64,000 nucleotides of DNA from a virus: IMG/VR virus record IMGVR_UViG_3300025030_000062, positions 1 through 64,000 of that record; one strand, written 5' to 3'. Under the pieces are notes generated by a model. That model did not search any database. It saw only the letters and a program-made list of their open reading frames with translations, and was not told the origin of the DNA. The first letter of the stretch is position 1; every line of letters begins with the position of its first letter. Shown here in pieces: positions 821-32,300 of this stretch. The position numbers were made by a program, and so were the translations under genes.

Positions 821-1084
821 ATGGGAATGTACGATGAGGTAAGTATTAGATGCCCTAATTGCAAACAATACTTTATATTCCAAAGCAAGTGCGGTCCTAA
901 ACGACTTGAAAGCTTTAGTTTAGACAACGCGCCTTTGTTTGTGATTGCCGATATAAACGAAGACGGCGAAAATGGAAAGCTTTGGTGTGAACATTGTGAT
1001 TCACAAATTAAAGTAAAAGTTCGCTTCACTGTGAAAGTTGAATCGCCTGATTGTCTGGAAGCAGAAGATTACAGGGAAGTTTAA
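821..1084 (+). CDS. Hypothetical Zn-ribbon protein
   Basis: CPNC and CEHC; tight spacing with neighbours. Confidence 0.7.
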   Translation: MGMYDEVSIRCPNCKQYFIFQSKCGPKRLESFSLDNAPLFVIADINEDGENGKLWCEHCDSQIKVKVRFTVKVESPDCLEAEDYREV

Positions 1085-1603
1085 ATGACCATCTTCTCAG
1101 CAACCGGCCATAGACCAAACAAGCTTTACGACGCCTACCCTGAACGTCATGGTTATGATTTGCTTGTTAGCTACGCTGAGTATTGCTTGAAACTGAATAA
1201 CGTTTTGATCATGGGAACTGGCATGGCTCTTGGTTGGGATATGGCTGTTGCTCAAGCTTGTTCTAATCTGCGAATTCCTTATGTTGCTTGCATTCCGTTC
1301 CAAGGCCAAGAATGCCAATGGTCGAAGCGCAGTCAGGAGTATTACAAGTTCTTAGTTTCGCTTGCGTGTCAAGTTGTTTATGTTTGTGATCCTGGTTATG
1401 CTCCTTGGAAGATGCAGAGAAGAAATGAATACATGGTTGATAATTCAACTAAGCAACTTGCGTTGTGGAACGGTACTAGCGGCGGTACTGGTAACTGTGT
1501 TAAGTATGCTAAGAGTAAGAAGGTTAAAGTTGTGAATTGTTGGGATGGTTATATTTTGGGATTGAGAGCGATGGGGATTGAATTTAAGGGAGGTAGAGAA
1601 TGA
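1085..1603 (+). CDS. SLOG-superfamily YspA/DUF1273-like nucleotide-binding protein
   Basis: Motifs TGHRP, GMALGWD, IPFQGQ, MQRRNEYMVD, WNGTSGGTGNCVKYA. Confidence 0.85.
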   Translation: MTIFSATGHRPNKLYDAYPERHGYDLLVSYAEYCLKLNNVLIMGTGMALGWDMAVAQACSNLRIPYVACIPFQGQECQWSKRSQEYYKFLVSLACQVVYVCDPGYAPWKMQRRNEYMVDNSTKQLALWNGTSGGTGNCVKYAKSKKVKVVNCWDGYILGLRAMGIEFKGGRE

Positions 1604-2694
1604 TTAAACAAGCACACATATACGCCGAAGTTCTTGAAGATTCAGCAAGAGAACAATTTGAAGATGCAATGAAGCAACCGTTTGTTGTGAAAGGTGCTCT
1701 CATGCCTGACGCGCACCAGGGCTACAGCTTGCCAATTGGCGCTGTTGTTGCAACTAAAGATGTAATAGTTCCTGCTTATATTGGCTACGACATTGGCTGC
1801 GGCGTTTGCGCTGTACCTACAACCTTTAAGCGTGCTGATGTTGAAGCAAATGCTAAAGCTATTTACGAAATGATTTACAAAGTTGTCCCTGTTGGATTTG
1901 CCCACAATCAGAAAGATTCGGTTTGGGATGTAACTTTGCCTTGTTCGCCTACTCTCGGTGATATCTTTGCAAAGAACGGACTGAAACAACTCTGTTCACT
2001 CGGCGGTGGAAATCATTTCATTGAGATTGGTTATGACGAAAGCGATGTGATCTGGATTACTGTCCATTCCGGTTCGCGTGGTATTGGTCATGCTGTTGCT
2101 ACTCACTACATGAAACTTGCTTCAGGCGACGGTAAAGCGCGTGAAGGTCATTTTGGGTTTGATGTTAGTTCGCGTGAAGGTCGGGATTACATTACTGATA
2201 TGAACTTTTGCTTGGCGTTTGCTTTGGAGAATAGGATTCAGATTGCAAATCGTGTTGCGCGAGCAATTAAAGAATTCTGTGACGGTTATTGTGAACCAGG
2301 AGAGCTTATCAACCGCAACCACAATCACGCTGAACTGAAAGATGGTCTTTGGATTCATCGCAAAGGTGCTACTCATGCTGAAGCGGGAATGATGGGCGTG
2401 ATCCCTGGTAATATGCGTGACGGTTCGTTTATCGTGCGTGGTAAAGGTAATCCTGACGCTCTTTGGTCTAGTTCGCATGGTGCAGGCCGTGTTAAAGGTC
2501 GGAAGCAAGCTCAGCGCGAAGTTAAGCTTGAGGATTTTGCTGAAACGATGATTGGCATAACTGCTAATGTGGGTAATAATACTTTGGATGAATCGCCTTT
2601 TGCTTATAAGAATATTTATGATGTGATGAAGCAGCAGAGCAATATGGTTGAGGTTATTCATCATGTTAAGCCTATTGTTAATTGTAAAGGATAA
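1600..2694 (+). CDS. rtcB: RtcB-family RNA ligase (2',3'-cyclic phosphate/5'-OH)
   Basis: MPDAH, DIGCG, GGGNHFIE, HSGSRG, HNH, HRKGAT, SHGAGR and DESPFAYK motifs all present. Confidence 0.95.
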   Translation: MIKQAHIYAEVLEDSAREQFEDAMKQPFVVKGALMPDAHQGYSLPIGAVVATKDVIVPAYIGYDIGCGVCAVPTTFKRADVEANAKAIYEMIYKVVPVGFAHNQKDSVWDVTLPCSPTLGDIFAKNGLKQLCSLGGGNHFIEIGYDESDVIWITVHSGSRGIGHAVATHYMKLASGDGKAREGHFGFDVSSREGRDYITDMNFCLAFALENRIQIANRVARAIKEFCDGYCEPGELINRNHNHAELKDGLWIHRKGATHAEAGMMGVIPGNMRDGSFIVRGKGNPDALWSSSHGAGRVKGRKQAQREVKLEDFAETMIGITANVGNNTLDESPFAYKNIYDVMKQQSNMVEVIHHVKPIVNCKG

Positions 2695-2703
2695 GGAGGC
2701 TAT

Positions 2704-2922
2704 GTGATTAAGGATATGACGAACAAAGAAACAGCAGAACATATGCGAAATTTTATTACAAGAAATCACGGTCCTTTTGCTTGGCCTACTGACGCTTGTG
2801 GTTATGATCAGCATATTAAGTTTGTTAAATACAGAAACGAATTTTGGAATACAAGCTATTCTGGTGACTGGAAACAGTTTGTTAACGAGTACGCAGATAA
2901 GCTTGAGCAGGAGGCTGTGTGA
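2704..2922 (+). CDS. Hypothetical protein
   Basis: RBS AAGGAGG, GTG start, overlaps the next start. Confidence 0.6.
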   Translation: MIKDMTNKETAEHMRNFITRNHGPFAWPTDACGYDQHIKFVKYRNEFWNTSYSGDWKQFVNEYADKLEQEAV

Positions 2923-3677
2923 CAAACCCCTACATACTCTCCAATGACATATTCAAGTCCAGTGAACTAATGGCAATGAAGCTCAAAGAGCGAAAGAGCG
3001 CGGGTTTACCTTTCGACGCGCTTAGACCTGGATACAGTTTCTATGTCAAGATAACAGATATGTCAGAAGCTGCTTTTCGTAGTATGGTAAGTGCTACTTC
3101 TACTCGACATAGAAGGGCGTACAAATGTATCAAGCATAAAGAGCGAGATGTGTTTGAAGTGACTGTTGTTAGTGATGTTGAAATTGAATCGAAACTTGAA
3201 ATGTACGAATCGTCGGCTAAAGCTAAGAACTTGGTCAGACTAGGTAAGCAAGGCCGAAAGATTTATCATTTTGATGTTCTCGAAGAAGGTTACAGTTTCT
3301 CTTATTCTATTGAGGGTAATAGCGAAACTGCTCTTAGGACCGCTTGTAGTTTGTGGTCTAAGAAATTAGGTGTTAGATTCAATTTGTTCAGGCATGATGA
3401 ACTTGGTATCTTCGAGGTTGCGCGGCTTAAACCTTCTCAGCTTACGCATGATCAGCCTATTCCTAGTTCAGCGCGTGCTCTTGCTTATAGAGGTAGGTAT
3501 GATATACCTGAACCTAAACCTAAGCCAGAAATAAAGTTTGAGTATAAATCAGGGCCGTCTCCTATGCTTGTGCCTCTTGTGCCTGAACCGAAGGTTGAGC
3601 CTGAACCACCTCCTGTAGTAAAGCCTGAACCACCACCCAAACCCATGCCTGCTGTTGAATTTTGGAGTGATAAATGA
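2919..3677 (+). CDS. Protein with two PFDxLxxGxSF (DUF7303-like) domains and a Pro-rich tail
   Basis: Internal repeats PFDALRPGYSFYV and YHFDVLEEGYSFSY; PEPKP repeats. Confidence 0.7.
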   Translation: MTNPYILSNDIFKSSELMAMKLKERKSAGLPFDALRPGYSFYVKITDMSEAAFRSMVSATSTRHRRAYKCIKHKERDVFEVTVVSDVEIESKLEMYESSAKAKNLVRLGKQGRKIYHFDVLEEGYSFSYSIEGNSETALRTACSLWSKKLGVRFNLFRHDELGIFEVARLKPSQLTHDQPIPSSARALAYRGRYDIPEPKPKPEIKFEYKSGPSPMLVPLVPEPKVEPEPPPVVKPEPPPKPMPAVEFWSDK

Positions 3678-4120
3678 ACCAGATACCTTACATAGAATTC
3701 TTTAATGGACTTAGTGAAGGTCAATGCTTTTTGATTCCCTGTGAGCAACTTGATGCATTAGAACTTGCAAATATTTGTAATAATGCTGGCGAACACTTGA
3801 AAAAGGAATTCGTTTGTGTTAAAAATGGCGGCAACTTTGAGATATCGCTGAAGTCTCAAGCTGAAATTAGTTCTCCTACATTTGGAATTATTAATATTGT
3901 TGATTCGACGCCGTTGATGCTTGCGAATAACACGGCTCGAATAAGCAATAGAAAGTTTCCTTTCGACACGCTTGAAGTAGGTAAAAGTTTCTTCGTCGCT
4001 TTGAGTGAAGAAGGTAATCTAAGAACTCAGGCTAGCCAGTACGGTAAGAAGCTAGGCCGAAAGTTTAGGTGTGTTAAGCATAAAGAACAGGGCTTAATTG
4101 AGGTAGGAAGAATATCTTAA
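3674..4120 (+). CDS. Protein with two DUF7303-like domains
   Basis: FFNGLSEGQCFLI and FPFDTLEVGKSFFV repeats. Confidence 0.7.
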   Translation: MNQIPYIEFFNGLSEGQCFLIPCEQLDALELANICNNAGEHLKKEFVCVKNGGNFEISLKSQAEISSPTFGIINIVDSTPLMLANNTARISNRKFPFDTLEVGKSFFVALSEEGNLRTQASQYGKKLGRKFRCVKHKEQGLIEVGRIS

Positions 4121-4142
4121 TGTGGCTAAATAGGAGAGAAAG

Positions 4143-4433
4143 ATGTGTTTATTCTGTGCTGATAAGATGAAGCATGTAAGAGTGCTTCTAGCCGCTAAAG
4201 CGATAGGTTGGTTGCCTAAAGAAGATGACACCGATTTAGAATCTGTTGTTGAGAAAGTGATATGGGATCATGCCAAATTGCACTACAGGTTAAATGAGGA
4301 TGAAGCTGTTGAAGTATATAGATGTTCTGTAATTAGAGCTAATTTGTGCAAAGGAATTCGCAAAGTTTTACCTTCAATTTCAATCGAAGACAGGTTTAGG
4401 CTTGCGTTGCAAGCAGGCGCGGTGAAGCTATGA
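4143..4433 (+). CDS. Hypothetical protein
   Basis: RBS AGGAG; ATGA coupling to the next gene. Confidence 0.6.
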   Translation: MCLFCADKMKHVRVLLAAKAIGWLPKEDDTDLESVVEKVIWDHAKLHYRLNEDEAVEVYRCSVIRANLCKGIRKVLPSISIEDRFRLALQAGAVKL

Positions 4434-4756
4434 CTGTTATTAACATTAATAAAGCACCTAAAGACTGGCGAAATAACCCTGAATATGCTTACATTGGGCG
4501 AACCGGTTACGGGATTGAAGGTTACTTTGGTAATCCGATTGACCACAAAGCACCTTGCTTAATATGTGGGCAAATTCACGGTCTTCCTGGATTAACTTTA
4601 CTTTGCTACGAGACTTGGTTGCAGAACAAGCTTAAGTTTGATGCTGTGTTCAGCGAACGCTTCTATAGGGAACTAAGCGGCAAGATATTGGTTTGCTTCT
4701 GCAAACCTAAGCCTTGCCATGGTAATATTATATTGAAGTATTTGGAAAGGAGATGA
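4430..4756 (+). CDS. DUF4326-domain protein
   Basis: YIGR...FGNP...LSGKILVCFCKPKPCHG. Confidence 0.85.
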   Translation: MTVININKAPKDWRNNPEYAYIGRTGYGIEGYFGNPIDHKAPCLICGQIHGLPGLTLLCYETWLQNKLKFDAVFSERFYRELSGKILVCFCKPKPCHGNIILKYLERR

Positions 4757-4759
4757 TGA

Positions 4760-5050
4760 ATGCAACACATTGATGCTTTGATAGATAAGTTTTATTCATC
4801 GAAACCTAAAGTTCTTTGGCGAATGAGTAAGAAGATTAGGAGTACAATCGGTCAGTGGAAAGCGGATAATGGAGCGTATTTGCTTTATATTGCTAACGAT
4901 GAAGAATTGAAGCCTTTCACTTTGTTAGGTCATCCTATTCAAATTATTGAAGAAGATAAGTTGATTTTGCTGTATGTGTTTGCAAATGGAGCAGTCGAAA
5001 TGTTCGACATGACAGACGTGTTAAAGGAGACAACAAATGCAAAGCGTTGA
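4760..5050 (+). CDS. Hypothetical protein
   Basis: RBS AAGGAG; within the gene run. Confidence 0.6.
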
Positions 5051-5264
5051 ATATTACAAAAACGGTGAACTTGTACGAGCAATGGAATTCTTTAACGGTG
5101 ATTCTTACCAGGAAGTACAGAGCAAAATGAAAGATAGGCTTAATGGACTCGAAAACGAATTTGAAGTTGTGAGTATGAAGCGTGAAAAAATCGGTCGCAA
5201 TCAAATGTGTCCTTGCGGTAGCGGCGTTAAGTTTAAGAAATGTTGTATCAATAAGAGTCTGTAA
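5037..5264 (+). CDS. SEC-C motif (Zn-binding) protein
   Basis: [20 protein letters not shown]. Confidence 0.9.
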
Positions 5265-5538
5265 GGAGAAACTATGAGCGCAAGTAAATTTAACGGAACC
5301 TATGACAATCAAAAAGCACAATGCCGCGAATGGTGGCTGGACGGCATGATGATCTATTGGCAGAGCGCCAAGCTAATAGCCGATATGGGTCGTACCGAGT
5401 TCGGCGGCTTCCCTGACCTTCCGAAGCAGGATAACGAAGCGCGAGGTTGACCTACAGAGGCCGAACGGCGGCAAGGTGAGGCTTGGGTATAGGCCAGGGT
5501 TGAGCTGTCGCTGTTGGCGACATTAGGAGATATTAATA

Positions 5539-5937
5539 ATGGATACGAGCGTCGGTCTGACAGTTGAGGGTTTGGTTGAATTGAAGCGCAAAATGGACGA
5601 ATTAAACAAAGGCTGTCGCCATGAAGCACCGATTTACGGTCATAGCCTTTTGCCTAGTTTGTTTGGTGGCATAGACATCATCAAAAGCAATTACTTGCCT
5701 ACAAGAACCGAAACATACGAAGAAGAGGTTGAACTGACTTTTAGAGAACGCTGGATCGAACCACTGTTGCATGGTGCTACGTTGCCGTTTGAGCCTTGGG
5801 TTAAGACAAAGTGGGTTACTAAGACGCGCCAAGTACCTGAACCGGTGTGCTATATGGTTGGTAATCAGCTTCTTATGAGTAGCTTTGCGTATGGCAGGCT
5901 GCGTAACTCAGGAATTATTTCAAATATTGTTTACTAA
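5539..5937 (+). CDS. Hypothetical protein
   Basis: RBS AGGAG, 132-aa ORF. Confidence 0.6.
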   Translation: MDTSVGLTVEGLVELKRKMDELNKGCRHEAPIYGHSLLPSLFGGIDIIKSNYLPTRTETYEEEVELTFRERWIEPLLHGATLPFEPWVKTKWVTKTRQVPEPVCYMVGNQLLMSSFAYGRLRNSGIISNIVY

Positions 5938-5940
5938 TCG

Positions 5941-5969
5941 TTGACAAGCTGAAGTTTGTAATGTATAAG
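5941..5969 (+). promoter_or_regulatory. sigma70-like promoter
   Basis: TTGACA-17 bp-TATAAG. Confidence 0.6.
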
Positions 5970-6001
5970 AAATGAAACTTCAAGTTAAGGAGGTAAACAG
6001 C

Positions 6002-6301
6002 ATGGACGAAATGAAAATGCAATTTAAGCTCCGAGAACCTAAGATCGGAATGCAGATTGTTAGCAAAGGTGATAGATGTTGTTTTGGTATGCCGAAAGGC
6101 GACGTTGGAACGATTGTTGAGATTGAGCCTAACGGATTAGAGTTTACTGTTACGAACTGGTACGGTAAGCGGGAATCTCATTGTGTTCAGTGTGCTTTGG
6201 AGTTACGTGAGGTGACTAAGAAGACTTGGCTTGAAATGTGTGATAAGGAAGCTAAGAGGGTGCGAGGAAATGACAAAAGCTGTACAACGCCGCAATGTTG
6301 A
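6002..6301 (+). CDS. Hypothetical protein
   Basis: AAGGAGG RBS before ATG 6002. Confidence 0.6.
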   Translation: MDEMKMQFKLREPKIGMQIVSKGDRCCFGMPKGDVGTIVEIEPNGLEFTVTNWYGKRESHCVQCALELREVTKKTWLEMCDKEAKRVRGNDKSCTTPQC

Positions 6302-6914
6302 TTTAATTGAGCTTGCAATGATTCAAACCCTATATCCTAGCTTAAGAGTAAAAGAGCGCAAGATACTTCACGGCTTGCTGAAAGAGAAAGACATTGCGCT
6401 TTTCAATGTCGAGCAAGTTTATCCTGTAACTGATAACTTGCTTGGCAGCATCATTCGCCACAAAGAAACAAACTATGAGCAGTTGGTTGCTCACACTGAG
6501 AAGTATAAAGCCAGGGCTATTCTCGGTCCTGTTGTCAGTCAGCGACTCGCTCTTGCTAAGTCCGGTAAAACTTCGATAAACCTTTCCATTGAAACTGGTA
6601 CGCAGGTTAAGGTTGTTGAGGATCGTGAGCCTGAGATTAAGTCATGCGTTGTTTTGGGCCATAATCCTCAATACAGTAACGCTATGTTTAGGGTTAAGAT
6701 GTTGACCAAAGCTGTTCTAAATAGTGATACGTTTATTGATCATAGTGGTGCTAAATTCGGCAAGTTTATAGTGATAGGTTTGTCTGCTCACAGTAAAGGA
6801 AGGTGGGTTGTACGTTGCGAGTGCGGCGAACATGAATTTAGGACTACCAAAGCCATTAAGAATCCGGCGAACACTCAGGATGCTTGTGCTAAGTGTAAAG
6901 GAGGTAAGTTGTGA
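6270..6914 (+). CDS. Hypothetical protein with C-terminal Zn-binding module
   Basis: GKFIVIG...WVVRCECG...CAKC; GAGG RBS before ATG 6270. Confidence 0.6.
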   Translation: MTKAVQRRNVDLIELAMIQTLYPSLRVKERKILHGLLKEKDIALFNVEQVYPVTDNLLGSIIRHKETNYEQLVAHTEKYKARAILGPVVSQRLALAKSGKTSINLSIETGTQVKVVEDREPEIKSCVVLGHNPQYSNAMFRVKMLTKAVLNSDTFIDHSGAKFGKFIVIGLSAHSKGRWVVRCECGEHEFRTTKAIKNPANTQDACAKCKGGKL

Positions 6915-7071
6915 AACTGAAAGAAACTAACGGCAAAATTGAAGCTCTTGATAATCGTTGGATGTTCATGCACTTTCTGAGCGGCCAAAATGAGCTATTT
7001 TCCGAACCCTGGAACTGGAAATTTATTGAACAAATGTGTGCTGCTCACAATGAGCCGTTTGAGAGGGTGAG

Positions 7072-7473
7072 ATGAAACCGGAAGACTTCACCAAGTCAGG
7101 TAGCGAAAGCGGTGAGCAGCGTGCTTTGATGGCATGGGCTGCAATGAATGTGGGTAAATATCCTGAATTACGTTGGCTATTTCATATTCCTAATGGCGGT
7201 ATGCGAGGTAATGATGCAAGAACTAGAGCTGTTATGGGTAACGCACTTAAGGCTGAGGGGGTCAAAACTGGTATAGCTGACCTAATGCTTCCATACCCTA
7301 GAGGCGGTTATCATGGCTTATGGATTGAGATGAAAAAGAAGGGTGAAAAGGTGAAGAAAGGTTCTGACCAGGATAAGTTTGGTAAAGAAATGCTAGCTCA
7401 AGGTTATGGTTGGTGTGAGTGCGATAGCTACGAGAAAGCACGCGACGTACTAATTCAATATCTATCTCAATGA
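7072..7473 (+). CDS. VRR-NUC (PD-(D/E)XK) nuclease
   Basis: ESGEQ...LFHIPNGG...GVKTGIADL...LWIEMK...Q. Confidence 0.9.
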   Translation: MKPEDFTKSGSESGEQRALMAWAAMNVGKYPELRWLFHIPNGGMRGNDARTRAVMGNALKAEGVKTGIADLMLPYPRGGYHGLWIEMKKKGEKVKKGSDQDKFGKEMLAQGYGWCECDSYEKARDVLIQYLSQ

Positions 7474-7629
7474 AAGGAGAAACAAAATGAGTAACACTGA
7501 TCCGAACAAAGGCAATAACTGCGGCAACTGTAAACGTGGAAGCAAACCTATGACTGAGCCTGAGTGTGTTGTTTGCGGCAATGTTGAGAACGAGACTAAG
7601 GTTAAGTTTTCGCAATGGGGGGCGAAAGA

Positions 7630-7851
7630 ATGAAAGTTTATGTATTTGAATCTGTTGTGTTACTGATAAGTTCAATTTTCTTATTCTCGTCTATTATAGC
7701 TTTTGGTTGTTCGTTTAAATGCGGAGGTTATGACGAAGATGAAAAGTTGAAAGCTCTTTGGTATTTTGCTGCATCAGGAGCCTTTGCGTTGATCTTCGGC
7801 GCTAGAATGATTTATTTGCTTGCTGTAGAAGCTGGAATGAATTTATTTTAA
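7630..7851 (+). CDS. Small two-TM membrane protein
   Basis: Two hydrophobic stretches. Confidence 0.55.
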   Translation: MKVYVFESVVLLISSIFLFSSIIAFGCSFKCGGYDEDEKLKALWYFAASGAFALIFGARMIYLLAVEAGMNLF

Positions 7852-7865
7852 TCTAAGGAGGATTC

Positions 7866-8405
7866 ATGATTTTAAGAAACCGATTTAAGCGAAAACGCTC
7901 CGTTAACGAAATGTTAATCTTCACTTTAGCTATTATGATTGCGGTAGCAATGTTCTCTTCAGCAACTGTATGGCTCACTAAGCGGCCAACTCCGCAATTA
8001 AAGAAATGTCACGGCCCTGGGCTTTCGATAGAAACTCTTAAGTATCAGGCTTACTTTTTCGAGGCTAATGCGGGTATTCATGCGTTAGAAGTTGCTAAGG
8101 CTGTGCAGCAGTCGAAGCGTAAACGGCTTACCGCTGCTATCTGCATGGTTGAATCAGGCGGCAAGAAAACGGCGTATAATCGCAGAACTAAGGTTGATGG
8201 GATGTATCAAGTTAACCCTGCTTTTTGGGGTAAGGTAAACACCAAATCAGCTCTTGCTATGACTGCTCAGCACGACGCTATAATGGATGAACTTTTAGCC
8301 GCTTCTAACGGAAACTTGAAGGTTGCATTGAATCGATACGGCGGCGATTCAACTAAAAAGGTCTACGCTCAAAATATATTGAAAGAAATGGAGCGCACCC
8401 CTTGA
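7866..8405 (+). CDS. Membrane-anchored SLT-type lytic transglycosylase
   Basis: N-terminal TM; ICMVESGG (catalytic Glu), GMYQV, ALNRYGG. Confidence 0.75.
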   Translation: MILRNRFKRKRSVNEMLIFTLAIMIAVAMFSSATVWLTKRPTPQLKKCHGPGLSIETLKYQAYFFEANAGIHALEVAKAVQQSKRKRLTAAICMVESGGKKTAYNRRTKVDGMYQVNPAFWGKVNTKSALAMTAQHDAIMDELLAASNGNLKVALNRYGGDSTKKVYAQNILKEMERTP

Positions 8406-8430
8406 CATTGGAATTAAGTTTTGCTAGATT
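8402..8430 (+). promoter_or_regulatory. Strong sigma70-like promoter with extended -10
   Basis: TTGACA-17 bp-TAGATT, with TG one base upstream of the -10. Confidence 0.75.
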
Positions 8431-8472
8431 GCACTCACCGATTAACGAACCAACTAAAAGGAGGAATTAAAA

Positions 8473-9078
8473 GTGGTACTGGAAAACAAAGCTCAGAAGC
8501 TGAAGCGTGAATCTCTCGAAGGTCTTCCGGCAATCGTCGCTGCTACTCAGAGTGAGATTGGTTACATGTTTGCTCCGCTTGAGAACGCGGAATGGCTGAA
8601 TAAGAACGGTCTTGTTGAATTTGATGTAAGTATCACTAACGAAGCGGGATTCATTGCAACCCGCGCAACCACAAAGGGGATTGAAAAAGTTATGAGTGAA
8701 AATGTTCAGGTTGAAGCAGCAGCACCGGTAGCGTCTGGTTATGTGATCGAAGACATCGCAGTTGAAGTAGTTTCCAAGCGTCGTGGTGGTGGTAGGGCTG
8801 GCGTTTCCTACCCGTTTGATGCACTTCAGGTAGGCCAGAGCTTTGTTGTCCCGGCTACTGAGAAGAAGCCGAATCCGGTGAAGTCTATGGCGTCTTCGAT
8901 TACCGCCGCTAATGCTCGTTACGCTACTCCGCTGACTAACGAAGATGGTTCTCCGAAGATGAAAACCATTACCGTTCCGCGTACCGGCGAAAAACGCGAT
9001 GTCCAGGCTACTCAGCTGGTTCGCAAGTTTACTGTTGTTGCTTGCGAAGGTGGTGCAAGGGTGGGGCGCGTGCTGTAA
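8473..9078 (+). CDS. DUF7303-like putative nucleic-acid-binding protein
   Basis: KRRGGGRAG followed by YPFDALQVGQSFVV; AGGAGG RBS. Confidence 0.75.
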   Translation: MVLENKAQKLKRESLEGLPAIVAATQSEIGYMFAPLENAEWLNKNGLVEFDVSITNEAGFIATRATTKGIEKVMSENVQVEAAAPVASGYVIEDIAVEVVSKRRGGGRAGVSYPFDALQVGQSFVVPATEKKPNPVKSMASSITAANARYATPLTNEDGSPKMKTITVPRTGEKRDVQATQLVRKFTVVACEGGARVGRVL

Positions 9079-9187
9079 TAGGTAATAACGGTACACTCAA
9101 AGGCCCAAGTTGAGTGTTTAAATGAAGTAAGATTATTTGCCTATACTTCGGCCAAATTATTTAACCTTTAATTGGAGATAAAACCCA

Positions 9188-9346
9188 ATGAAAACCGAAA
9201 TTAAAAACGCAATCAAGCTGTTGGCTCAGAAGATTACTGGTGATGTGAAGGCTGATGAAGCATTGAAGTTCACGCAAGCTGCATTGAATCTTGCTCATGT
9301 AAGTCAGCTTGTTGTTCAGACCAAGATTGTTGAAGGAAAGAACTGA
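9188..9346 (+). CDS. 52-aa hypothetical protein (not in the ORF track)
   Basis: GGAG RBS; MKTEIKNAIKLLAQKITGDVKADEALKFTQAALNLAHVSQLVVQTKIVEGKN*. Confidence 0.7.
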   Translation: MKTEIKNAIKLLAQKITGDVKADEALKFTQAALNLAHVSQLVVQTKIVEGKN

Positions 9347-9476
9347 GTCAGCACGGAAGGACGTGCGAGATAGCCTTGTGAAAAGACCTCAACCGGATAA
9401 AGCCGTTGGATGGTTCAGTAAACAAGGGTAGCATGTTTGAACAACACGGAACAGGTATCAAGCCCTGTACTCAGTT
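9341..9476 (+). ncRNA. tRNA-like element 1, with an 84-nt insert in place of the anticodon/variable arms
   Basis: AACTGAGT/ACTCAGTT closing stem; D-like arm GCACG-GAAGGA-CGTGC; T-like arm ACAGG-TATCAAGC-CCTGT. Confidence 0.6.
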
Positions 9477-9486
9477 TAAGCTTTAA

Positions 9487-9660
9487 ACGCCTCGCCGAAC
9501 CTTGAAGATGCTGGTGTTGTTTGGTGCTGTAGGCTTGACCTACAGAGGTAAGGTAGCCGTTTCGCGTTGCGGTCTTATCTGAATATGTAGCGCGGGGCTG
9601 AAAGCCGGGTCACTCGTAAGAAGGCTTGACTTTGCCAGTTTCAGAGTAAATTGGTTGTAG
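9487..9660 (+). ncRNA. Putative structured RNA (multi-hairpin)
   Basis: No ORF; stems GCCGAAC/GTTTGGT, CTGTAGG/CCTACAG, TTCGCGTTGC/GTAGCGCGGG, GGC-TGAAA-GCC, GCCAGTTT/AAATTGGT; many G-U pairs on the + strand. Confidence 0.45.
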
Positions 9661-9664
9661 TTTG

Positions 9665-9765
9665 ATTTGCAGCAAGTAGCTCAGCGGATAGAGCGTTCGG
9701 CAATTCGTTTTTACGAATGCAGTAATCTGAAAGGTCGTTGGTTCAAATCCAATCTTGCTGCAAAT
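9665..9765 (+). ncRNA. tRNA-like element 2 (pseudo-tRNA with a 26-nt anticodon loop, no CCA)
   Basis: CAGCAAG-TA-GCTC-AGCGGATA-GAGC-G-TTCGG-[26 nt]-CTGAA-AGGTC-GTTGG-TTCAAAT-CCAAT-CTTGCTG; acceptor stem extends to 12 bp. Confidence 0.8.
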
Positions 9766-9958
9766 TGTTCAGGTTGCGCGGATTCATTAAAGGAAGATCA
9801 GAGCAGTCTTCGCCTGAATAGTAACAGAAGTTAGTTGAAGGTGTTTGCCGCAACGATTTACTGTTTCAAATCGCTAGTACAGTGAGGGCATGATTCGAAG
9901 TTTGAAATATAACCAAATAGCCGAAAAGCCTTTGCATGAGCGACCTGACTACTAGCAA
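9765..9958 (+). ncRNA. Putative structured RNA
   Basis: No ORF; TTGTTCAGG/CCTGAATAG and GCTAGTA/TACTAGC long-range stems. Confidence 0.4.
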
Positions 9959-9960
9959 CG

Positions 9961-10005
9961 AACCCGCTTTGACAGATTAAAACCTGTTAAAGCGGGTTTT
10001 CTTTT
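9961..10005 (+). terminator. Rho-independent terminator
   Basis: AACCCGCTTTGACAG...CTGTTAAAGCGGGTT followed by TTCTTTT. Confidence 0.85.
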
Positions 10006-10014
10006 GCCGAACTC

Positions 10015-10044
10015 TTGACATTCATGATTAAGATTTGTTAGAGT
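10015..10044 (+). promoter_or_regulatory. sigma70-like promoter for the lysis/packaging genes
   Basis: TTGACA-18 bp-TAGAGT with extended TG. Confidence 0.55.
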
Positions 10045-10197
10045 GTTGCCGCAAGCTCCAAAACTTTAGTTTAAGGAGATTCTAATGCAAGAAAGCAAGT
10101 TAACCTGTCCGGTACTGCGTTGGTACGGTCATTGTTACATGAGCGTTGAATGCAAATCTTGTGGAAGATTGCGCTAACCAGTTGTCAGGAGGTATAA

Positions 10198-10389
10198 ATG
10201 CCGCCGCAAACTGAAGAATTTAGTCGTGAAAGTGTTAATGCTCTTGTATGTCCTGCTCTTAATATTCTTAGAGCTATTGAACTTGATTTAGCGGGTTGTG
10301 ACTGTATTTATAAGCCGAAGATTCGCAATGCTACTGATAACTTGCTTAAGCTAATGACTCTTGCTAAACGAGGTGATTTGAATGGCTAA
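10198..10389 (+). CDS. Hypothetical protein
   Basis: AGGAGG RBS. Confidence 0.55.
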   Translation: MPPQTEEFSRESVNALVCPALNILRAIELDLAGCDCIYKPKIRNATDNLLKLMTLAKRGDLNG

Positions 10390-10807
10390 GATAGATACTC
10401 TTGAACCGGATTTTAAGGTTCGAGTTGAAGAACTGATCAAACGAACCGAAGCGGCTACCAACCGCCAATGGGCTATTAGTGACGCTCGCCGCACTATGGC
10501 TCAGCAGCGTGATATTTACGCTCAAGGCCGAACTAAGCCGGGAAAGGTAGTATCGAACGCTAAGCCTGGACAATCGGCGCATAACTTTGCCTTAGCGATT
10601 GATCTATGGCCGCTTAAAGCCGATGGTAAGAACTTTGATTGGGGTGCTAGCCAAGCTTTGTTTAAAGTGATGGCCGACATTGCTGTTGAAATGGGTCTTA
10701 CTTCAGGTTTCTACTTTAAGAGTATTCACGATGCTCCTCATGTTGAACATCCGCGTTGGCGTCAGCAGCAAGCTAAATGGAAAGCTGGTGAGATTCAAAT
10801 TGCGTAA
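10382..10807 (+). CDS. Endolysin, peptidase M15 (L-Ala-D-Glu peptidase type)
   Basis: RTMAQQRDIYAQGRT, SAHNFALAID (His/Asp Zn ligands), DAPHVE. Confidence 0.9.
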   Translation: MAKIDTLEPDFKVRVEELIKRTEAATNRQWAISDARRTMAQQRDIYAQGRTKPGKVVSNAKPGQSAHNFALAIDLWPLKADGKNFDWGASQALFKVMADIAVEMGLTSGFYFKSIHDAPHVEHPRWRQQQAKWKAGEIQIA

Positions 10808-11060
10808 CGTAGCTTTGCTTATAGTTGTATTAATGCTAACCGGCTGTGCTATATTAGGTCAGCGTGAATCTTCAGTACAATTGTCTAATGGCGAAATAGT
10901 AACTATACGATGCCCACATGACGGTAAGGTAGAGTTTAAGCAAGGTGAAACGCAGATTAAAGTTGATCTTCAAGGTAAGCCTGGGCCGATTGATTCATTG
11001 GTAGCTTTAATGTCTTTAGGGTTTGCGAGGCTGTTTACAACAACTGAGGTGGTTAAATGA
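10788..11060 (+). CDS. Lipoprotein (possible spanin-like)
   Basis: Signal peptide with lipobox LTGC; hydrophobic C-terminal segment; overlaps the endolysin end. Confidence 0.6.
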   Translation: MRFKLRNVALLIVVLMLTGCAILGQRESSVQLSNGEIVTIRCPHDGKVEFKQGETQIKVDLQGKPGPIDSLVALMSLGFARLFTTTEVVK

Positions 11061-11602
11061 TAAAGCTTTGTGAACAGCTTTGTTATGAGAGCTATTCTGA
11101 CAGCAAAAACTTTACAGAAGTAGGGGATTTGGCCTACGGTTTGTTCTACACACCTTACGGTAAAATTCTATGCATCAGAGGCTCCGAGAATGCCTTGAAT
11201 TGGCTTCGTAACGTCAGGGCCGTACCTTGGCGCACCTGCGGCGGTCATATTGCCCACAAGGGGTTCATACGAGCTTTCCAGGCGCTTTGTAGCGGCGGGA
11301 TGCCTACCGGAGCAGGCGCGTGTGACATCGTGACAGGACATAGCCTTGGCGGGGCCATAGCGACCCTCTACGCTGAGCAGGCCGGATGCAAGGTAGTCAC
11401 CTTTGGCTCGCCTAAAGTGTACTTCAGATTCGCTCCTGCGCCGGTTCTGGATCACATTCGAATAGTGCGTGACGACGATCCTGTTCCCTGGATTCCTGGT
11501 ATGTTCTACAGCCATAGAACTGAAGCTACGGTGAGGAAAGATGACGATCATCATTTGCTTCAGATTGAAGACCACTTTATGAAAGGATACTTGACCAAAT
11601 GA
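11057..11602 (+). CDS. Class-3 lipase (alpha/beta hydrolase)
   Basis: IRGS, HKGF, VTGHSLGGA nucleophile elbow, TFGSP, DPVP, C-terminal DH. Confidence 0.9.
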   Translation: MIKLCEQLCYESYSDSKNFTEVGDLAYGLFYTPYGKILCIRGSENALNWLRNVRAVPWRTCGGHIAHKGFIRAFQALCSGGMPTGAGACDIVTGHSLGGAIATLYAEQAGCKVVTFGSPKVYFRFAPAPVLDHIRIVRDDDPVPWIPGMFYSHRTEATVRKDDDHHLLQIEDHFMKGYLTK

Positions 11603-11795
11603 GAACTTTAGCTTTGCTGGTTTGGATAGTGATTCTGTTGACTAGTTCTATTGTGGGTAAATAAGAGGATAAATTAAATGGCAAGAGATAAGTGTATTTA
11701 CAATCGTCATATCGAATGTGTTAACTGTGAACTTTGTGACAGATACAAGAAATGATGAACTTATTAGGCTGTTGATTCTATTGTTGGGGTGAGTA

Positions 11796-12191
11796 ATGCC
11801 TATTGCGCCTAGAAGACCTTGTTTACAACCTGGATGTGGTGCACTTGGTAATACGCCTTATTGCGAGAAGCACACTATTCAAAAGAAAGAAGAAGTTCGT
11901 ATTAAAGATCGGTATCGTGGTTCTGCTGCTTCAAGGGGCTATACGCACGAATGGAATAAATTTAGTAAAAGATATAGAGAACAAAACCCTTTATGTGTGA
12001 TGTGTGAAAAGGAAGGTAAGTTAGTTTTAGCTCAATGCGTTGACCACATCATTCCTCATAAGGGTGATCAGAAATTGTTTTGGGATTTGAATAACCTACA
12101 GTCGCTATGCCACTCGCACCATTCAGAGAAAACTGCGCGTGAAGATAACGGTTACGGTAATGCAGCAAAAGAACGAGAAAGATTCATCTAA
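11796..12191 (+). CDS. HNH endonuclease (HK97 gp74-like packaging cofactor)
   Basis: PLCVMC...VDHIIPHKGD...NLQSLCHSHH; directly upstream of terS. Confidence 0.9.
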   Translation: MPIAPRRPCLQPGCGALGNTPYCEKHTIQKKEEVRIKDRYRGSAASRGYTHEWNKFSKRYREQNPLCVMCEKEGKLVLAQCVDHIIPHKGDQKLFWDLNNLQSLCHSHHSEKTAREDNGYGNAAKERERFI

Positions 12192-12200
12192 GGAACTAAA

Positions 12201-12653
12201 ATGGCGAACACAAGTCTGAAACCCGCGCATTTGAAAGTAGTGGACAAAGCACATGCTCACATGTACGACTATGACAATCCTGAACCGTCTAAGGATTGGC
12301 CTGTTACACCATCTCGCTTGTCACCTAAAGCAGCAGGTATCTTTGAGCGAATGGTATTGCGTATTGCTGAACTTTATCCTCCTTCAGCTTCTCATACCGA
12401 AATTTTAGCAATTTACGCCGAGGCCGAGGAAGATTATCTTGAACTGTCTGCTTACATTAAGTGGAATGGCCGAACTTTCACTACTGAAAATGGACAAATC
12501 AAACCTTATCCTGAAGTAGCAATGAGGAATGAAGCTAAGAATACGATGGAAAAGATACTTAAGGAGTTTGGTCTAAGTCCTGCTTCGTCGCGTAATGTAA
12601 AAGTAACCAAGCGTCAAGAGAAGCGTAACAGCTTTGCGGATTTGGATGATTGA
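12201..12653 (+). CDS. terS: Terminase small subunit, P27 family
   Basis: KPAHLKVV, IKPYPEV, KEFGLSPASSR; position. Confidence 0.85.
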   Translation: MANTSLKPAHLKVVDKAHAHMYDYDNPEPSKDWPVTPSRLSPKAAGIFERMVLRIAELYPPSASHTEILAIYAEAEEDYLELSAYIKWNGRTFTTENGQIKPYPEVAMRNEAKNTMEKILKEFGLSPASSRNVKVTKRQEKRNSFADLDD

Positions 12654-12654
12654 T

Positions 12655-12813
12655 ATGGCTAAGTGCGAACTGGTTATTAGAGTCGAAGTTAAATGGTGGC
12701 TGAAGCTGTATCTTAGCGGCTTGAGTATGGTTTGCTGGATTACTGGCAATGAGCCTGATTGGGATAAGGTTAATGCCTGGGTTAAGCGAGGTATTAAATT
12801 TGAACAGGTATAG
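12655..12813 (+). CDS. 52-aa hypothetical protein
   Basis: MAKCELVIRVEVKWWLKLYL...; starts 1 nt after the terS stop. Confidence 0.5.
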   Translation: MAKCELVIRVEVKWWLKLYLSGLSMVCWITGNEPDWDKVNAWVKRGIKFEQV

Positions 12814-29308: not shown

Positions 29309-32300
29309 TGGCTGATGATATCAAGATTAGTATTGGTGCAAATACTGATAACTTTCAAACTGGTATTGACAAGGCGTTTAAAACAGTAAGTGAATTTGGA
29401 AATAAGAACAAAGAATTAGCCTCCCTTACAGATGTTGCTTTTAGGCAGTTGTCTAAAATAGCAGCGTCTACGGCGGGTAGTGTTCAAGCCTCGTTTAACG
29501 AGCTTAGTGTTAAATCCGACGCTTCTATGAAAGCTATGGAAGTTAGTTTAAACAAAGCAAGTGCTGCGTTTAACGTCGCATTTAATAAAATAGTTGCTGA
29601 TGCTAACACTAGTAGTAATGATGTTGAAAGAGCGTTTAGAAAACTAGGCGAACTGAACGCTACCTTGGATGCTTCAACGCTTAAGAATGAGTTTAAGACT
29701 TTAGGTATTGAGTCGGCTGCGTCTATTGAAGCTGCTAAACTCAAGATTCAGAACGCATTCGAAGAAATTAAACTGAGCGGTACTAAATCCCCACAAGATG
29801 TAACTCGCGCTCATGAAGCAATGGTTGCAAAGATTACTGAGCTTGACAATTTATTAGTAACGTCTGCCGAGAAAGTTGCTGCTGCTAGAAAGCTGTCTCT
29901 TCAAGAAATGAAAGCTACTGAGCAAGCCTTGTATGCAACTCAAGGTATGCAAGGTGAATTTGCTGCTAGCAAGTTGATAGGTCAACAGCAAGCAGGTTCT
30001 TCGTTCGCTAACGAACTTAAAGCTCAGATGGAAAGCAACGCTCAGTTTGCAAAACTCGCTGCTGAGAAAGTTAATATTGCTCATGATGAAGCTTTAGCTG
30101 AAATCAAGGTATATGAGCAAGCTGCACAAATGAATCAGAAGTTTGATTACGATAAGATTCGTTCGGCAAAAGCTGTCGCTGATGCGAAGATAAAAGCTTT
30201 GCATGACACAATGCTGGTTGAAAAAGCTGCTTATGCTTCACAGACAATGAGTAGTGCTGACGCGGCTGCTAAATTAATTGGTCAACCGTTAGCAGGTTCT
30301 GGTTTTTCCAATACCTTGAAAACTCAGATGGAAGAAGCTGCTAGATTAAACGAGCTTATGGTTCGTGAAATGGCTTCTTACGCTGCTGCTGCGATGCAGG
30401 GTGAAGCTGCTGCTGCAAAGCTCACAGGTCAATTACAAGCAGGTTCTGGCTTTGCAGCACAGTTGAAAGCTCAGATGGAAGGTGTTGCTCAAGAAACCGA
30501 ACTGAGTGCAAAACGCTTTAAAGAACTCGCTGCTGCTGAAGAATACGCACTTAGAAACAAGGGTGCGAACACCGACAGACTTCAAGGCTCCTTTGACGTT
30601 CTCGGCCTGAAATCCTCGCTGAACATTGAAGCTGAACGTGCTAAGGTTATTGCTGCATTCGATAAGATTAAAGTTTCTGGTGTGGCAAGTGCAAATGAAA
30701 TCAAGCAAGCTCATGTCGCAATGAAGCGTAAGCTTGATGAAATTGAGGGTGTGAAACCTCCTGCTGATAAACATGCTCACAGCATCAATCTTTTAAGTTT
30801 AGCTTCCATTGCAGCAATCGCTAAAGTTCAAATTTTATACTCGTTAATCAATCAGACAATGAGTTTGATTGGTAGCTTACCTAGCACTGCTATAGATGCT
30901 ATTGAAACTTTCCAGTCTTCAATGATCAAAAACGCTGCTGTTATTACCTCTATGGGCGGTGGTGTAGCTGATATTGGTAAAGCTTACCAGGAGAACAAAA
31001 AGTACGCCGAAGCTGTTCAGAACGTGCTTGTTAAGATGGATGCTCACACTATAGCATCTTATAAACAACTTCAATTGATGAATGACGCCTTTGTTAATCA
31101 AGGTGTGTTCATTGACATTAATAACAAGAAACAACTTCAGGGTTATCAGAACACTGCTAACGCCTTGGCTACTATTTCTGCTGGTATGTCAAACCCTGAT
31201 ATGCAGTTCAGCCAGGAAATACGCGGCCTGCTGAACGGTGAAGATAAGCCTACTAACATGCTGTTCAGGCAATTGAAGGCCATTGATCCGCTCTTGAAGG
31301 ATCACTTGGCTGATTGGAAGAAGATTGCTGCTGAAACCGGTAATGCGGGTTACGTGCTTGAGAAGCTTGGGCCGCTGCTTGTTGGTTATGCTGCTGCGTC
31401 CGGTGATATTGATTCGCTTTGGACTACTGTTAAATCTACCATGAGCACTATCAGGGATGAAGTGCTGCGTGGTGGATTGAAAGAAGGGTTTGAAGAGATA
31501 GTTGTTCAGATGAAGGAGATTGCTAAGCAAGCAAATGATAACAAAGAAAAGATTCAAGCAATGCTTAAAGATGGCTTCGGTTGGGCTAAAGTAGCAGCAG
31601 AGTACTTATGGAATGTGGGCAAAGCGGCTGCTTATCTCGCTGAGCCTGCAATTTGGTTAGGTATATCTGCTGGTATTATTAAAGTAGCTACGTCTATGAC
31701 AACGCTTACTTCTGAAATTACTTTAGCTACTGCTGGTTTGAACATATTGGTTGCTGGTTTGATTGCGGCTGCTGCTTATACAGGTAAAGAATATTTTAAA
31801 GCTGAAGAAATGGAGTCGCGGCTTAATAATATTAAATCAATGTCGGTTGATGGTACTAAAGGTTCGCTTGCTGCTGGTTTGCAGCGTGAACGAGTAGATC
31901 GTCTTACTACAACTGATTTAGAAAAGATTCTTAAGTCTAATCCTTTAGCTTCTGATGCAGAAATTGCAGAGTGGGTCAAAGCTGGTGCGATTAAGAAGTC
32001 TTCGTTAGGGGATAAAGGTGACGCTGCTACTATTCTAGGCTCTGTTGGTTTATCTGTAGACCAAAGAGCTATAGAAGCAATGAAAGATGACGCTATTGCC
32101 GCTAAAGCGCCTAAGATTCCTAAAGCGCCGAAAGGCGGCGGTGACGTTACTGATCTTAAAAACAACGCTACATCTGCTGACAATGCATATCTTGCTTACT
32201 CCAAAGCGTTTGATGAAAGAGTTGCGACGCAAACTGAGATTGCTAACAACAATCTTATTGAGATTAACCGTCAAAGTTACGAATGGGGCTTGATTGACCT

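Follow-up and report, generated by a model that had tools for sequence, protein, structure and literature searches.

A tRNA-shaped phage RNA with a hairpin in its enlarged anticodon loop: a candidate non-decoding tRNA look-alike

Species 1 and 2 of phage T4 (rnaC and rnaD) are small phage RNAs that are co-transcribed with tRNAs or replace them. Their ends resemble those of tRNAs and the tRNA machinery processes them, but they are longer than the RNA described here and lack a complete tRNA body. To our knowledge, their function is still unknown. The YrlA-type Y RNAs of bacteria and phages reportedly carry tRNA-like modules and are often encoded beside rtcB and rsr. Archaeal and eukaryotic pre-tRNAs may carry a short insert in the anticodon loop, with RtcB as the joining ligase; in their bulge-helix-bulge motif, a 4-bp helix with a 3-nt bulge on either side marks the exon-intron borders. 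Carrying ordinary tRNAs is a well-established way for phages to counter defences that destroy tRNA (PMC11555353, PMC11464382). Our literature search returned no description of phage genes in which a perfect tRNA body is combined with a structured module replacing the anticodon loop. We also know of no described decoy with the shape reported below.

We analysed a window of 64,000 nt, positions 1 to 64,000 of an IMG/VR virus record, that holds such a gene at positions 9665-9765. The gene and its parts, a neighbouring RNA, the promoter-like and terminator-like sites and the RtcB gene all lie on the plus strand. The tRNA-shaped body (tRNA positions 1-73) spans 9670-9761, and its length of 92 nt is due to an expanded loop. 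It was recognized by Rfam model RF00005 and by ARAGORN, which set the gene bounds at 9669-9762. The RF00005 match runs end to end (model positions 1-71) at 48.5 bits, compared with a gathering score of 29, and the alignment places a 25-nt insertion inside the anticodon loop. A preliminary description made from the sequence had listed a canonical U8 and A9, D arm, anticodon stem, variable loop and T arm, and we found every one of them. Besides U8 and A9, the body has a canonical D arm, GCTC/AGCGGATA/GAGC at 9679-9694, with A14, G18, G19 and A21. The variable loop AGGTC and the canonical T arm GTTGG/TTCAAAT/CCAAT occupy 9732-9753. The D arm and this segment were read directly and are supported by the Rfam alignment. 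The same alignment pairs TTCGG (9696-9700) with CTGAA (9727-9731) as a basal, anticodon-type stem. All four helices are free of mismatches, with one G-U pair each in the anticodon stem and the T stem.

The acceptor strands CAGCAAG and CTTGCTG (9670-9676/9754-9760) give a C1-G72 pair, and ATTTG/CAAAT (9665-9669/9761-9765) extends this helix to 12 perfect pairs, the number given in the preliminary description. The 5' strand of the closing helix therefore covers 9665-9676 and is paired in every fold, and its 3' strand (CTTGCTG, C73, AAAT) covers 9754-9765, as read directly and from the folds. Position 73 (9761) is a C paired with G-1. Together with four further bases it pairs with the 5' leader, leaving no free discriminator base, and no CCA is encoded. 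A tRNA-His reading of the G-1:C73 pair involves the same pairs as a general extension of the helix.

In place of a 7-nt anticodon loop, the RNA has a loop of 26 nt at 9701-9726 (read directly; fold energy -4.9 kcal/mol). The loop consists of CA, the perfect hairpin ATTCGT-TTTT-ACGAAT already noticed in the preliminary description, and then GCAGTAAT; that is, 2 nt, a 6-bp UUUU hairpin and an 8-nt tail. The hairpin itself (9703-9718) is unique in the genome; pairing of 9700-9702 with 9718-9720 can lengthen it to 8 pairs, leaving one A bulged. The middle arm is thus two-tiered, with a 5-bp basal stem, an asymmetric internal loop (CA/GCAGUAAU) and a 6-bp hairpin. One U before the 3' strand of the basal stem lies the motif CAGUAA (9720-9725), which holds the GUA that had been taken for an anticodon. 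Perfect hairpins of 6 bp with a 4-nt loop occur 22 times in the 94.9-kb genome, or about 2.3e-4 per base, and at this rate a hairpin inside the 26-nt loop is unlikely to have arisen by chance (approximately 0.3%).

ARAGORN called the gene Thr(cgt) when introns were disallowed and Lys(ttt) with a 7-nt intron when they were allowed, and these conflicting identities indicate that there is no normal anticodon loop. We rejected the second, class-II reading (Lys UUU plus a 7-nt intron), because it has to assume an abnormal loop in addition to an insert and brings no gain in folding energy (-29.8 kcal/mol). Nearest-neighbour folding slightly favoured a non-cloverleaf structure (-33.3 versus -30.6 kcal/mol for the cloverleaf), in which GCGUUCG (9693-9699) pairs with CGAAUGC (9714-9720). 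A decoding tRNA has an anticodon loop of 7 nt in which position 33 is U and position 37 a purine; this RNA does not. We conclude that it almost certainly does not read codons.

The record that holds the window is 94.9 kb long, with an estimated completeness of 81%, and represents a tailed phage with terminase, portal, capsid and endolysin genes and several HNH and homing endonucleases. Near-identical DNA is confined to groundwater metagenomes (DNA sequencing runs from groundwater and sediment), and relatives of its DUF7303 protein point to phages of Proteobacteria. The 9665-9765 element is the sole tRNA-like gene that ARAGORN found in the entire record. It sits in a gene-free stretch of about 620 nt at the end of a putative transcription unit that starts at a promoter-like site (8402-8430; consensus scan, 10/12 matches with TG), continues through a DUF7303 gene and a 52-aa ORF, and is closed by a strong intrinsic-terminator-like hairpin at 9960-9999 (consensus/terminator scan). 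A promoter directly upstream of the tRNA-shaped RNA was unsupported by the promoter scan, and the flanking "structured blocks" folded no better than shuffled sequence. A phage RtcB RNA ligase gene at 1600-2694 (Pfam PF01139, 290 bits), 7 kb upstream of the RNA, adjoins a YpsA/SLOG gene. The window encodes three paralogous DUF7303-type proteins (2919-3677, 3674-4120 and 8473-9078) with the repeated motif (Y/L/F)PFD.L..G.SF in common, and two of the three genes lie directly downstream of RtcB. We considered DUF7303 as a partner of the RNA and rejected it, because cultured relatives (Septimatrevirus, Lokivirus) have DUF7303 without an adjacent RNA gene; in these phages the DUF7303 gene is the last before the lysis cassette.

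The same unit contains a second tRNA-shaped RNA (9341-9476), whose long arm, when folded, carries CAGUAA at the equivalent position. Within the family of this neighbouring RNA, the motif is found at that spot in the window (9414-9419) and in the loci L258 and L259, and in each case it makes up the 3' side of an internal loop located immediately above the middle arm's basal stem. The 9665-9765 RNA shows the same trait, with CAGUAA above the basal stem followed by GGU(A/C)G. Three other features of the family are absent from it: the invariant arm core of about 40 nt, the linker GAGAUAGC and the additional hairpin that precedes the T arm. Judged by these comparisons, the 9665-9765 RNA may at most be a short-armed cousin of its neighbour. 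In L258, a 155-kb phage, the homologue of the neighbouring RNA lies on the minus strand among 33 clustered tRNA genes, and the ORF after it has the GS...D.D motif typical of small nucleotidyltransferases. Among 73 distinct expanded tRNA-like genes, CAG(G)UAA lies 0-1 nt from the 3' strand of the arm in three, namely the 9665-9765 gene, L072 and L077, with an extra G in the L072 version (CAGGUAA-type). Shuffling yielded about one CAG(G)UAA anywhere in the sequence, compared with the three of 73 observed beside the 3' strand.

Exact and degenerate scans of viral and genome collections, GenBank phages and the listed metagenome matches found no homologue with the same insert. Exact scans with the 5' and 3' halves of the RNA found nothing in viral contigs, and BLAST against GenBank phages gave only generic D-arm and T-arm matches. 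In relatives identified through the endolysin, DUF7303 or the 52-aa ORF the RNA cluster is absent; the closest contig among them, L010, whose endolysin is 95% identical, stops at window position 9966. Antisense targets of the loop in the phage genome were at chance level. Among the matches listed from the metagenome scan, most were long-armed tRNA-Ile(UAU) genes or archaeal tRNAs with introns. Loci with such tRNA-Ile(UAU) genes, in which the loop of the long extra arm reads CUGAUAA, include L045, L046, L121 and L123-L130, among others. Genes with the same anticodon stem in the genome scan belonged to many isotypes, and the ancestral tRNA identity is therefore unreadable from the body. The nearest strains, from the same groundwater, either diverge at 9609-9820 or are without that stretch. 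In a co-occurring strain (run X1, depth 47), a contig joins 9364 to 9762, one base past the end of the body, which means that this strain is without the core of both tRNA-shaped RNAs (9365-9761) or has it replaced. Divergence or absence in related groundwater strains suggests that the RNA is dispensable or subject to fast turnover.

A structured RNA does occupy the equivalent place in L389, a 42.7-kb phage (93% complete) that is syntenic with window positions 1000-12800 and has the gene order YpsA, RtcB, VRR-NUC, SLT, DUF7303, a 63-aa ORF, esterase, HNH and TerS in common with it. The equivalent non-coding stretch holds a normal tRNA-Pro(UGG) with an encoded CCA, the sole tRNA of the L389 record, followed after 12 nt by a 125-nt RNA (L389:14465-14592) that folds as a four-way junction or cloverleaf (fold z = -4.5). 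Its 13-bp closing stem contains the 8-mer pair GCAGCAAG/CTTGCTGC of the closing helix at 9665-9765, a pair that occurs nowhere else in 3.8 Mb of loci, and in the outer extension of the helix the two RNAs differ by a compensatory T-A to A-T change. The 3' flanks are similar, and the block beyond matches window positions 9763-9870. The middle arm of the L389 RNA is also two-tiered, an internal loop separating the inner hairpin from a basal stem of 5 bp, and its third arm keeps the T stem of the 9665-9765 RNA with one compensatory change. The D-type and T-type loops of the L389 RNA are not tRNA-like. Mimicry of a tRNA may thus not be a conserved trait, since this counterpart has lost the tRNA D and T loops.

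Further look-alike RNAs all came from one pattern scan in which the D arm and the T loop were fixed, and their likeness is partly built in by that scan. L072 scored 59.5 bits against a model of the 9665-9765 RNA. When the insert, the acceptor stem and the positions fixed by the search pattern are set aside, the two agree, by our count, at 23 of 29 positions. L072 has a closing helix of 11 bp, no CCA and the same CA...GUAA frame, placed around an unrelated insert of 18 nt. L078 is an unrelated groundwater phage with no proteins in common with the phage studied here; its RNA gene is found upstream of the terminase genes, with a promoter and a terminator of its own. The L074 RNA is located inside a complete provirus. 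In both L078 and L074 the loop has the layout found at 9701-9726, in which a short spacer precedes a 6-bp hairpin and 8 nt follow it, and no simple deletion yields a standard loop with U33 and a usual anticodon. The hairpin geometry (L078, L074) and CAGUAA (L072, L077) fall on different sets of RNAs.

Several other kinds of expanded tRNA-like genes were observed in viral contigs. Gut phages of crAss size (contigs of about 100 kb; L031:2334-2423, L058, L064, L071, L081, L113 and others) carry tRNA genes with a conserved anticodon-loop insert of 16-19 nt, GATT(WW)TTAAAGGTAGTT, for which we found no precedent in the literature search. In these genes the 5' portion of the loop is variable and pairs in part with bases after the insert. 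A tRNA-like gene in L027 (767-853), present in more than 40 identical or near-identical gut viral contigs, has the middle region GGTACGTACC or GGTGTACACC depending on the subfamily. This region is a palindrome that changes yet stays palindromic, and ARAGORN often misses the gene. Beside expanded tRNA-like genes, two viral contigs gave tmRNA matches, a permuted one at L042:5388-5816 and a standard one at L064:891-1337.

Viral tRNA genes with apparent introns were also found. The genes at L051:6504-6614, L028:955-1072 and L088:2249-2339 begin the loop normally, with C32, U33 and the anticodon, and continue with a hairpin insert of 18-35 nt. Without the insert they would have a standard loop (Arg CCU, Lys CUU, a UUA suppressor), and the inserts look like true short introns. 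The short-intron tRNA genes in our sample keep C32-U33-anticodon-R37 ahead of the insert. Across 731 distinct ARAGORN-predicted tRNAs in the examined loci, position 33 was U in 698 and A in 8. Ordinary tRNA genes accompany related RtcB genes in 20 of 43 phage loci (up to 28 in one locus), whereas none of the four records with look-alike RNAs, one of them a complete provirus, has RtcB. RtcB shows no specific link to RNAs of this kind, and the phage probably uses it for tRNA repair in general rather than for splicing the tRNA-shaped RNA.

The preliminary description had left two options, a mini-intron requiring a nuclease and RtcB or a purpose-built non-decoding mimic. Under the first, a nuclease would remove 19 nt and the phage RtcB would ligate the halves; the resulting tRNA, 73 nt long and with CA-GUA-AU as its loop, would read Tyr codons. 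Several observations favour this: the RtcB gene lies on the same strand, CA repeats bound the 19 nt, whose excision leaves, as had been noted, a 7-nt loop with a central GUA, L072 has the same CA...GUAA frame, and true-looking short introns exist in phage tRNA genes (L051, L028 and L088, with U33 and a normal anticodon before the insert). The C1-G72 pair and the 5-nt variable loop would fit archaeal-type tRNA-Tyr; bacterial tRNA-Tyr has G1-C72 and a long variable arm, and the archaeal and eukaryotic forms have C1-G72 and a short variable loop. The C1-G72 pair, presented earlier as an archaeal or eukaryotic tRNA-Tyr feature, is indeed there but is not exclusive to that tRNA, because it is equally the rule for phage tRNA-Pro and occurs in all phage tRNA-Pro(UGG) genes adjoining related RtcB genes. 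The predicted product, however, would have A33 instead of the near-universal U33, and all eight possible 19-nt deletions leave A33. The insert is not at position 37/38; the hairpin begins at the third base of the loop, 5' of the putative GUA. No bulge-helix-bulge forms in any register of 9696-9731, and the 94.9-kb record has no match to a splicing endonuclease (EndA/Sen, PF01974), for which the controls matched archaea only. A group I intron, whose ribozyme core P1-P9 exceeds about 200 nt, is also not indicated, the insert being 19 nt with no Rfam intron match. An A73 discriminator is required by all TyrRS classes and is violated by C73, the long variable arm needed by bacterial TyrRS is missing, and the acceptor end is buried in the 12-bp helix, with no CCA enzyme gene found in the phage record. 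Relatives of the RtcB adjoin ordinary intron-less tRNAs, and RtcB itself is missing from all four look-alike records. The intron option is therefore disfavoured; a spliced tRNA-Tyr is the least likely reading of the RNA and would surprise us greatly.

A rival account is that the gene is a recently disabled tRNA gene, in which a duplication or insertion in the anticodon loop left a neutral remnant heading for loss. This accords with the normal tRNA-Pro(UGG) in the equivalent stretch of L389, with the inner hairpin TTCG/CGAA that repeats the outer stem TTCGG/CTGAA as a local duplication would, with the missing CCA and A73, with the failure to find a homologue of the same insert, and with the co-occurring strain that is without 9365-9761 or has it replaced. 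A decaying gene would be expected to carry damage elsewhere, but here the helices pair, all tertiary nucleotides are present and the body is intact, which favours a mimic over decay. The 12-bp closing helix is a positive feature whose sequence recurs in the structured RNA of L389, L072 keeps the CA...GUAA frame around a different insert of near-equal length, the loop layout recurs in unrelated phages, and the motif is common to the conserved neighbouring RNA. We consider a disabled gene unlikely, though by no means far-fetched. The tRNA shape could instead act in cis, recruiting RNase P or RNase Z or blocking exonucleases with no role in trans, and so set the 3' end of the upstream mRNA and release the neighbouring RNAs. 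The position at the end of the operon, between structured RNAs and just before the terminator, would suit such an element, as would the L078 RNA between its promoter and terminator, the L389 counterpart that keeps helices but not tRNA loops, and the long closing helix and missing CCA, which argue against a free acceptor end. For this purpose, however, an ordinary tRNA gene or a simple hairpin would suffice, the recurrent CAGUAA and the conserved two-tier arm would go unexplained, and the flanking blocks lack structure beyond that of shuffled sequence; we regard a purely cis-acting element as distinctly unlikely. It is also conceivable that selection acts on the DNA, with the inverted repeat GCAGCAAG...CTTGCTGC serving as a recombination or homing site that swaps RNA cassettes and the interior being cargo. 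The phage studied here and L389 do have the repeat and the 3' flank in common around different interiors, the region varies among co-occurring strains, and the genome is rich in HNH and homing endonucleases. Against this, there are two examples only, no recombinase or endonuclease gene is adjacent, and in both phages the repeat coincides exactly with the helix that closes a well-folded RNA, and the outer extension of that helix differs by a compensatory change, which points to selection on the RNA. We find the DNA-level account barely plausible.

Our preferred, still tentative, reading is that the gene encodes a tRNA-derived, non-decoding small RNA that may act as a tRNA look-alike, its partner being a guess. 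It corresponds to the second option of the preliminary description, and although it is unproven and no homologue with the same insert was found, it fits the comparisons with L389, L072, L078 and L074 and those based on CAGUAA. In support of it are the lack of a usable anticodon loop, as seen from A33 after every 19-nt deletion and from the conflicting ARAGORN calls; the cloverleaf RNA at the equivalent place in L389, with its common closing stem and two-tier arm; and the L072 frame, the L078 and L074 layout and the CAGUAA of the neighbouring RNA family. We propose that the RNA would be transcribed as the final segment of an operon, early or middle, running from the promoter at 8402 to the terminator at 9960-9999, and that host tRNA-processing enzymes would recognize the intact body and excise it. 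Its ends are locked in the 12-bp helix, with no free 3' end. It would use its tRNA scaffold to present CAGUAA as an exposed strand and so occupy a partner that normally acts on the anticodon arms of tRNAs. Our best guess at this partner would be a host tRNA-directed defence nuclease or a tRNA-modifying enzyme that acts on G34-U35-A36-A37 (Tyr-type), and the neighbouring RNA at 9341-9476, with the same motif in the same place, would act together with the 9665-9765 RNA.

If such RNAs are made and stable, they would add a new layer to the tRNA conflict between phage and host, with mimics rather than substitutes, and they would be ready-made natural "tRNA scaffold" RNAs. Genes of this kind also receive arbitrary anticodons from tRNA finders (Thr and Lys here), which distorts inference of phage codon usage and host range. 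A bolder proposal is that the 9665-9765 RNA, the 9341-9476 RNA, L072 and L077 form an undescribed class of phage RNAs that display a Tyr-type strand C-A-G-U-A-A, with A for U33. They would serve as decoys for, or inhibitors of, a host enzyme or nuclease by which GUA-type anticodon arms are attacked or read. We regard this as a long shot. If true, the class would be an RNA-based anti-defence device distinct from the supply of spare tRNAs.

Canonical phage tRNAs (RF00005), such as the tRNA-Pro(UGG) of L389, resemble the 9665-9765 RNA in the cloverleaf body, the D-loop and T-loop nucleotides and C1-G72, and the L389 gene likewise lies at the end of an early operon beside lysis and packaging genes. 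They differ in having a 7-nt loop rather than one of 26 nt with a hairpin, whereas the RNA described here has no U33, no usable anticodon, C73, no encoded CCA and a 12-bp acceptor helix. Intron-containing pre-tRNAs of archaea and eukaryotes have in common with it a short insert in the anticodon loop and RtcB in the genome; in contrast to them, it has no bulge-helix-bulge, no insert at 37/38 and no accompanying splicing endonuclease, and its product would carry A33. YrlA is, like the 9665-9765 RNA, a non-decoding RNA with a tRNA-like module in a genome with RtcB. Its topology is reversed, however, with the RNA ends on the anticodon side instead of the acceptor side, the YrlA/Y RNA model of Rfam gave no match at E values up to 10, and no Ro60/TROVE gene was found in the phage record. 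A further parallel, which makes the 9665-9765 element look like one case of a recurring and apparently undescribed theme, came from phage phiC31 (L441), where an unannotated tRNA-shaped gene at 31424-31510 (Rfam, 53.6 bits) carries the 24-nt insert AACCCGGGACGCGAAAGCGTGCAC in place of the anticodon loop. The phiC31 RNA thus has, like the 9665-9765 RNA, an intact tRNA body with a structured insert for its anticodon loop, although the two inserts are unrelated in sequence and layout, that of phiC31 having CCCGGG plus a GNRA hairpin.
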